Source of the DNA: Escherichia coli
GTDB taxonomy: Bacteria; Pseudomonadota; Gammaproteobacteria; Enterobacterales; Enterobacteriaceae
Reading direction: 5' to 3' (one strand)
Length of the DNA stretch: 316 nt
NCBI RefSeq assembly: GCF_003334385.1
Contig: NZ_QOWN01000206.1
Part shown: positions 1-316 of the stretch, one piece after another
How the letters are laid out: every line of letters starts with the position of its first letter
Position numbering within the stretch: the stretch's first letter is position 1
Made by a program: the position numbers and the translations under genes
The notes under the pieces: generated by a model
The model's database searches: none
Told to the model about the DNA's origin: nothing
The model's input: the letters and a program-made list of their open reading frames with translations, nothing else

Positions 1-316
1 AGATGGTGAAGCAGCTCACCGTTGCCACAGTAAATGGCGGCATGGTTCGGTACCGAAGCACCAAAGCAGCACAGCAGCACATCGCCCGGTTGTGCTGATG
101 ACAACGGCACCTGATACAGCCCTGTGGCCTCCAGATTATCCAGGTACAGGTTCTGGCCGTTGCGCCACCAGTCATCCTCGCGATGAAAATCCGGCATTTC
201 AGTCCCCGCCAGATGATAAGCATCCCGGAACAGCGTGTAACAGTCCGTCACCCCGTGCTCAAAGCGCCGTCCTGTCAGATGTGGCACACAGCGGAATTTG
301 TGAATGTCACCCCGGC
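1..316 (-). CDS. K: Phage tail tip assembly protein K (lambda gpK family; JAB/MPN + NlpC/P60), internal fragment, partial at both ends. In-frame codons occupy + positions 3-314; N-terminal side is toward position 316, C-terminal side toward position 1.
   Basis: Only one of the six frames on this strand is stop-free across the window; the other two minus frames hit stops within the first few codons. I checked the translation codon by codon. It contains the strings IHKFRCVPHLTGRRFEHGVTDCYTLFRDAYHLAG, REDDWWRNGQNLYLDNLEATGLYQVP, QPGDVLLCCFG and VPNHAAIYCGNGELLHH, which I recall as characteristic of lambda gpK and its prophage homologs (from memory, not database-verified). The NlpC/P60 signatures are present: D-C-Y-T-L around the nucleophile Cys, and H-A-A-I-Y-x-G around the catalytic His. 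Codon usage is E. coli-like (CTG Leu dominant, CCG Pro, GGC/GGT Gly). Confidence 0.92.
6..269 (-). other. NlpC/P60 (papain-like cysteine peptidase fold) domain region of the K protein. Putative catalytic Cys codon at + 240-242 (aca, reverse complement tgt), catalytic His codon at + 42-44 (atg, reverse complement cat), third polar residue His at + 6-8 (or the adjacent His at 3-5). Domain boundaries are approximate.
   Basis: Motif order and spacing: Cys in a G-V-T-D-C-Y-T-L context, then His 66 residues later in N-H-A-A-I-Y-C-G, then His 12 residues after that in E-L-L-H-H. This matches the canonical Cys ... His ... (His/Glu/Gln) arrangement of the NlpC/P60 superfamily. Boundaries are inferred from motif positions, not from a profile search. 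Confidence 0.75.

Follow-up and report, generated by a model that had tools for sequence, protein, structure and literature searches.

Results

Coding sequence in the window

The window, i.e., the whole 316-nt stretch of E. coli DNA analysed here, carries an internal part of a phage K gene (Table 1). Six-frame translation showed that minus-strand frame 3 is open from end to end, with codons running from window position 314 down to 3. The resulting translation of 104 amino acids, RGDIHKFRCVPHLTGRRFEHGVTDCYTLFRDAYHLAGTEMPDFHREDDWWRNGQNLYLDNLEATGLYQVPLSSAQPGDVLLCCFGASVPNHAAIYCGNGELLHH, begins with RGDIHKFRC and ends with NGELLHH. Stop codons are present in each of the other five frames, and the plus strand contains only ORFs of 20–31 aa. 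The 104-aa fragment matched the family PHROG 30 'minor tail protein' with E = 5.5e-65, and the full 247-aa K protein of the E. coli ED1a prophage described below matched it with E = 4.1e-161. Pfam NLPC_P60 (PF00877) was found with E = 3.7e-10 in the window peptide and with E = 2.9e-13 in the full protein. The first-pass annotation had described a K homolog matching lambda gpK over its whole length. The best matches are indeed phage and prophage K proteins and the likeness extends over the whole window, but not over the whole of gpK, since the complete codons in the window are codons 97–200 of 247, which make up 42% of the gene.

Between the window and lambda K there are 37 nucleotide differences, 31 of which fall on the third base of a codon; the dN/dS ratio is 0.047. 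The third-position bias and the low dN/dS mark a real coding frame, far beyond what chance would give. To judge from this substitution pattern, the K gene is under strong purifying selection. We hold it as nearly certain that the window is the middle part of the K gene from the tail module of a lambdoid prophage, i.e., ordinary core phage sequence which is already known.

Searches for other elements gave little. A sigma-70-like pair of hexamers (GTTACA, 17-nt spacer, TATCAT; 9 of 12 positions) at 213–241 on the minus strand lies inside the coding sequence and is probably a chance occurrence. At a permissive threshold, Rfam yielded only a chance-level match to IRES_Bip (11 bits vs. a gathering score of 40). 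No terminator was found in the window, and its repeats are of 10 nt only and not credible as features.

Table 1 Features of the window and of the surrounding prophage. Numbers without a locus name are window positions; the plus strand of loci L004, L007 and L016 corresponds to the minus strand of the window
Feature	Position	Strand	Evidence or remark
Lambda K homolog gene, internal fragment (tail tip assembly protein K; annotated C40 family peptidase)	1..316	-	Open frame, homology, exact copy within 744-nt K gene
Prok-JAB (JAMM/MPN+) domain, final 9 residues (97–105)	288..314	-	Pfam Prok-JAB bounds
Interdomain linker, residues 106–110	273..287	-	Gap between the two Pfam domains
NlpC/P60 (MEROPS C40, papain-like) domain, residues 111–200	3..272	-	Pfam NLPC_P60, model positions 1–80 of 105
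Cys121 codon TGT, predicted nucleophile, D120-C121 motif	240..242	-	96% conserved; aligns with Cys of Spr/MepS DCSG
His187 codon CAT, predicted catalytic His, NHAAIY motif	42..44	-	98% conserved; aligns with His of Spr/MepS RHVGIY
His199 and His200 codons CAC and CAT; His199 predicted third triad member	3..8	-	98% and 93% conserved
Tape measure gene H	to L004 2026
M	L004 2023–2352
L	L004 2352–3050		TIGR01600, 366 bits
K (744 nt, 247 aa)	L004 3061–3804
I	L004 3702–4382
J	to L004 8163		NF049904 lambda_TipJ, 2077 bits
Collagen-like tail fibre	L004 8348–9901
DUF4376 tail-fibre protein	from L004 9921
ParE/PaaA2 pair beside repressor (accessory)	L030 1544–2025
NUDIX and HAD hydrolases (accessory)	L030 6472–7778
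hok/gef (accessory)	L030 8286–8498
N6/N4 DNA methyltransferase (accessory)	L030 11502–12560
NanS-like esterase (accessory)	L030 13418–15400

Tail module

In an exact-pattern scan, a single IMG/VR contig, UViG_643348545_000006 (45,254 bp), was found; it contains all 316 bases at L004 3347–3662. The genes there form an H-M-L-K-I-J operon on a single strand, and the order M, L, K, I, J recurs in the comparison loci L005–L012, L001 and L002 and in lambda. From the orientation of the frame and the conserved tail gene order of lambdoid phages, the L homolog had been placed to the right of the window (higher coordinates) and the I and J homologs to the left, which proved to be exact in the ED1a locus.

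The I homolog read from the ATG at L004 3702 comprises 226 aa and can be aligned with lambda gpI (223 aa) from the first residue on. This ATG lies 103 nt before the end of K, whose last 34 codons are overlapped in another frame, and about 40 nt past the left edge of the window. Gene callers differed on the length of the protein (193, 210 or 226 aa); in the 193-aa RefSeq call, the ubiquitin-like domain would lack its first strand. By this alignment, the ATG at L004 3702 is most likely the start of the I homolog.

Domain organization and predicted catalytic residues

The full gene has the two-domain architecture of the gpK family, an N-terminal JAB/JAMM domain (Pfam Prok-JAB, PF14464, residues 3–105, E = 9.7e-16) followed by a C-terminal NlpC/P60 domain (residues 111–224), the final ~24 residues of which are encoded past the left edge of the window. 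Residues 104–120 are without regular secondary structure in the AF2 model.

Conservation was assessed with 105 full-length homologs of 33–58% identity, and a profile built from the K homologs was aligned to E. coli Spr/MepS. Residues G111, R112, D120, C121, D127, D174, H187, H199 and H200 within the window are near-invariant. Equally conserved are the residues E19, H68-S69-H70, S78 and D81 of the zinc/catalytic JAMM/MPN+ motif (E...HxH...S..D), which is present in the full K protein and is encoded outside the window at higher coordinates. In the profile alignment, His199 coincides with the histidine of Spr/MepS FVHA, 12 residues past the catalytic His, so the conserved Cys-His-His/polar triad of the NlpC/P60 superfamily is present, and the predicted fold is papain-like alpha+beta. 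Profile, triad and predicted fold all place K in the NlpC/P60 superfamily. When 1.84 billion cluster representatives were searched, 2,823 clusters proved to be related at E ≤ 0.001. Sequence searches of solved structures did not bring up gpK itself; they gave JAB relatives and, when the profile was used, also NlpC/P60 relatives.

Relationship to lambda gpK and to other E. coli K proteins

Lambda gpK (NP_040598 / P03729; NC_001416) is identical to the window peptide at 99 of 104 residues (95%), without gaps and with a BLASTP E value of 3e-77; the nucleotide identity is 89%. The five substitutions (ED1a to lambda) are D99T, T134I, S169A, A182S and N194D. Lambda K shares with the ED1a gene both its position between L and I and the JAB + NlpC/P60 architecture. 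Sequence, architecture and synteny thus all assign the window gene to the lambda gpK family.

Two E. coli prophage K proteins of 247 aa, both named 'C40 family peptidase' (WP_106913351.1 and WP_198800529.1), are identical to the window peptide at all 104 positions (residues 97–200). Their genes show 99.1–99.4% nucleotide identity to the window and lie in the common M-L-K-I-J context, although one of the two prophages has an HK97-type head module and not a lambda-type one. These protein comparisons and the PHROG 30 match bear out the K assignment made at first sight.

The prophage of E. coli ED1a

An exact copy of the window (316/316) was found at 1,067,129–1,067,444 of the chromosome of E. coli ED1a (CU928162.2), an O81 commensal (PMC2806823). 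It is part of a prophage of ~46 kb (1,028,825–1,074,905 of the 5.2-Mb chromosome) at the tRNA-Ser gene serT, which is bounded by an exact 62-bp direct repeat including the 3' part of tRNA-Ser (ED1a 1,028,825–1,028,886 and L007 18002–18063). A tyrosine integrase gene (PF00589; ED1a 1,029,028–1,030,047) adjoins yccA at one end. At the right end, the tail-fibre genes are followed by a small YkgJ-like ORF, tRNA-Ser(UGA) and then hyaA and hyaB. Leftward from the tail module lie head genes, terminase, a lysis cassette, a NanS-like esterase, a DNA methyltransferase, Q, RusA and hok, then NUDIX and HAD hydrolases, replication genes, cro/repressor with a ParE/PaaA2 toxin-antitoxin pair and DicB, and finally a RecE-like exonuclease, a DUF4224 protein and the tyrosine integrase. 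Integrase, att repeats, host flanks and a lambda-like gene order are thus all present; judged by its gene content, the element is a lambdoid prophage at serT which has every module and looks intact. The earlier assignment of the window to a phage or prophage tail module is confirmed and narrowed to an integrated element of an E. coli chromosome.

Accessory cargo had been expected beyond J and the tail fibre genes. The ED1a prophage did not follow this expectation: almost nothing but the small YkgJ-like ORF lies there before attR, and the accessory genes are found in the early and late-regulatory regions (L030; Table 1), including the NanS-like (DUF1737-SASA) esterase of 660 aa. A second predicted ED1a prophage (IMGVR_UViG_643348545_000013, L023, 57,943 bp) contains an identical 120-bp stretch of the esterase gene, which indicates that ED1a has two or more related lambdoid prophages. 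In IMG/VR, UViG_643348545_000006 begins ~250 bp to the left of the RecE-like gene and appears to omit the integrase and attL.

Distribution and mosaicism

Related sequence was found in 4,347 of the 5,426 complete E. coli genomes in RefSeq (~80%), with a median of 2 and a maximum of 14 K-like copies per genome. The window is core phage tail sequence which is already known and extremely common. Among the complete E. coli genomes of RefSeq that were searched, none has an exact copy (99.4% at most) because ED1a is outside that collection. There was likewise none in the GTDB representative genomes or in the plasmid collection (best 93.4%), and the closest phage record has 94.6% identity. The identical 316 bases occur in several E. 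coli NCBI assemblies, which were reached via an exact-protein index and any of which could equally be where the window comes from.

From each of its two nearest RefSeq relatives, L001 and L002, the window differs at three positions, and these lie at opposite window ends (2–18 and 198–219). All three differences from L001 and two of the three from L002 are at third codon positions; the remaining L002 difference is outside the complete codons. The differences are synonymous. This pattern suggests that the window is a recombinant, mosaic allele. The exact window was found with lambda-type head modules (L005–L011) and with an HK97-type one (L012). Both the end-clustered differences and the two head types are in keeping with mosaic exchange, as is usual for lambdoid tail modules.

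An ompC-like porin gene (L001 12646–13809) interrupts an otherwise collinear tail module in E. coli 2012EL-2448, where it is inserted between the M and L homologs. Downstream of their tail fibre genes, the closest RefSeq relatives have a DinI-like gene and genes for proteins with a YadA-like C-terminal domain (L001 22985–24247, L002 22477–23988); the ED1a prophage has neither.

Discussion

Though the window itself is ordinary, it bears on a question common to the whole family, namely which substrate is cut in tail-tip assembly by the NlpC/P60 half of gpK, which is conserved and apparently active. In lambda virions, gpK was detected neither by mass spectrometry nor by cryo-EM, and the tip shows only residues 135–223 of gpI (PMC10721106); the location of gpK was still termed unknown in 2025 (PMC12617516). 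The N-terminus of gpI is a ubiquitin-like domain (Ubl) with a conserved terminal glycine, and the NlpC/P60 domain of K is almost always fused to JAB and adjoins the gene for the ubiquitin-like substrate (Iyer, Burroughs and Aravind, PMC1779556). PA0639 of the Pseudomonas aeruginosa F-pyocin, a tailocin and not a phage, is likened to K by description as a gpK homolog. Tips are not formed without it, as its deletion results in tip-less tubes, and finished particles contain no PA0639 (bioRxiv 10.64898/2026.02.24.707460). The cleavage of the gpI Ubl by gpK has been attributed to the deubiquitinase-like JAB domain in a meeting summary; when we searched the literature for a full paper on gpK-gpI processing, only this meeting report was found.

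Taken together, these reports best support a picture of K as a non-structural assembly enzyme, which would be needed to build the tail tip but would be absent from the finished particle. The JAB domain, which is encoded almost wholly outside the window, would cut the N-terminal ubiquitin-like domain off gpI after gpI has docked into the tip complex, and cutting after docking would enforce the order of assembly. As to the NlpC/P60 domain, the conserved triad, the nearly constant fusion to JAB and the lack of K in particles lead us to regard it as a catalytically competent second peptidase, which would most likely act in the cytoplasm on a tail-tip protein, e.g., on the glycine-rich linker of gpI or on another tip component. 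We tentatively propose, as a possibility with the odds still against it, that the domain, instead of being a cell-wall hydrolase, serves a phage ubiquitin-like processing system as a second peptidase or transacylase directed at proteins. Its role could be in trimming the gpI glycine-rich linker, in the cleavage of gpH to gpH* or in the transfer of the released Ubl. If true, such a role would be shared by the whole family of K proteins and would not be particular to the window.

The alternative that the domain is a peptidoglycan endopeptidase, which helps the tail across the cell wall at DNA entry, has precedents in the hub-hydrolases of other tail machines and in the gene transfer agent of Rhodobacter, where rcc01697 (RcGTA; TIGR02219), likewise an NlpC/P60 protein, takes the place equivalent to that of K in a related tail module. 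Moreover, the nearest structural neighbours of the K domain are peptidoglycan endopeptidases, which fit a cell-wall role as well as they fit protein processing. However, rcc01697, which is implicated in DNA entry, consists of NlpC/P60 only and has no JAB, whereas the domain in K is almost always fused to JAB and lies beside the gene of a ubiquitin-like substrate. The model for GTA-type phage cell wall peptidases (TIGR02219) was tried on the window and rejected, as it gave 19.5 bits, far under the cut-off of 81.9. An enzyme that the particle lacks can play no part at entry, and this applies to gpK in lambda virions as well as to PA0639 in F-pyocin particles. The cell-wall endopeptidases E. coli MepS/Spr and Bacillus subtilis CwlO and LytE, which are exported proteins or lipoproteins acting on peptidoglycan, show only ~20% identity; unlike them, K begins directly with the JAB domain, has no visible export signal and functions in tail assembly. 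We consider a cell-wall role at entry unlikely on these grounds and prefer an assembly peptidase acting on tip proteins.

Many E. coli lambdoid prophages are defective, K-like copies number up to 14 per genome, and the gene in the window might be a decaying relic that is no longer functional. For the ED1a gene, this is very improbable. K is full length with all the catalytic residues kept, the H, M, L, I and J genes of the same prophage are full length as well, and dN/dS is low. The att repeats are still identical at 62 of 62 positions, and integrase, repressor, replication, Q, lysis, terminase, head and tail genes were all called.

An origin of the window from a cellular, non-phage gene for an NlpC/P60 cell-wall enzyme is practically excluded: it is suggested only by the generic Pfam NLPC_P60 match and the RefSeq name, whereas the equivalog models (NCBIfam) for RipB, RipC and DIP1281 gave 16.4–17.5 bits against cut-offs of 335–517, L, I and J flank K at every place examined, and K lies inside an att-bounded prophage. 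The first-pass annotation had itself named best matches to non-phage proteins and the lack of neighbouring tail genes as what would speak against it. Neither was observed, as cellular and GTA-type models together reached 16–19 bits against cut-offs of 82–517 and all three neighbours are present in the flanks.

The comparison with lambda also concerns the reference sequence of that phage, in which K is annotated as a protein of 199 aa only, so that residue 97 of the ED1a protein corresponds to residue 49 there. In comparison with all K homologs, the lambda reference (NC_001416 / J02459) is without one G near position 14,267 (L003 ~4268; GGAGGC-TATTTCC). As a result, the first 45 codons (MTQTES...) fall into another frame and the annotated 199-aa K is left without the JAMM residue E19. 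The version containing the G is found with 100% identity in resequenced lambda records, namely KT232076.1, LC730321.1 (48,503 bp), PV340536.1, lambda imm21, imm434 and DE3, and the missing G in the reference is probably a sequencing error of 1982.
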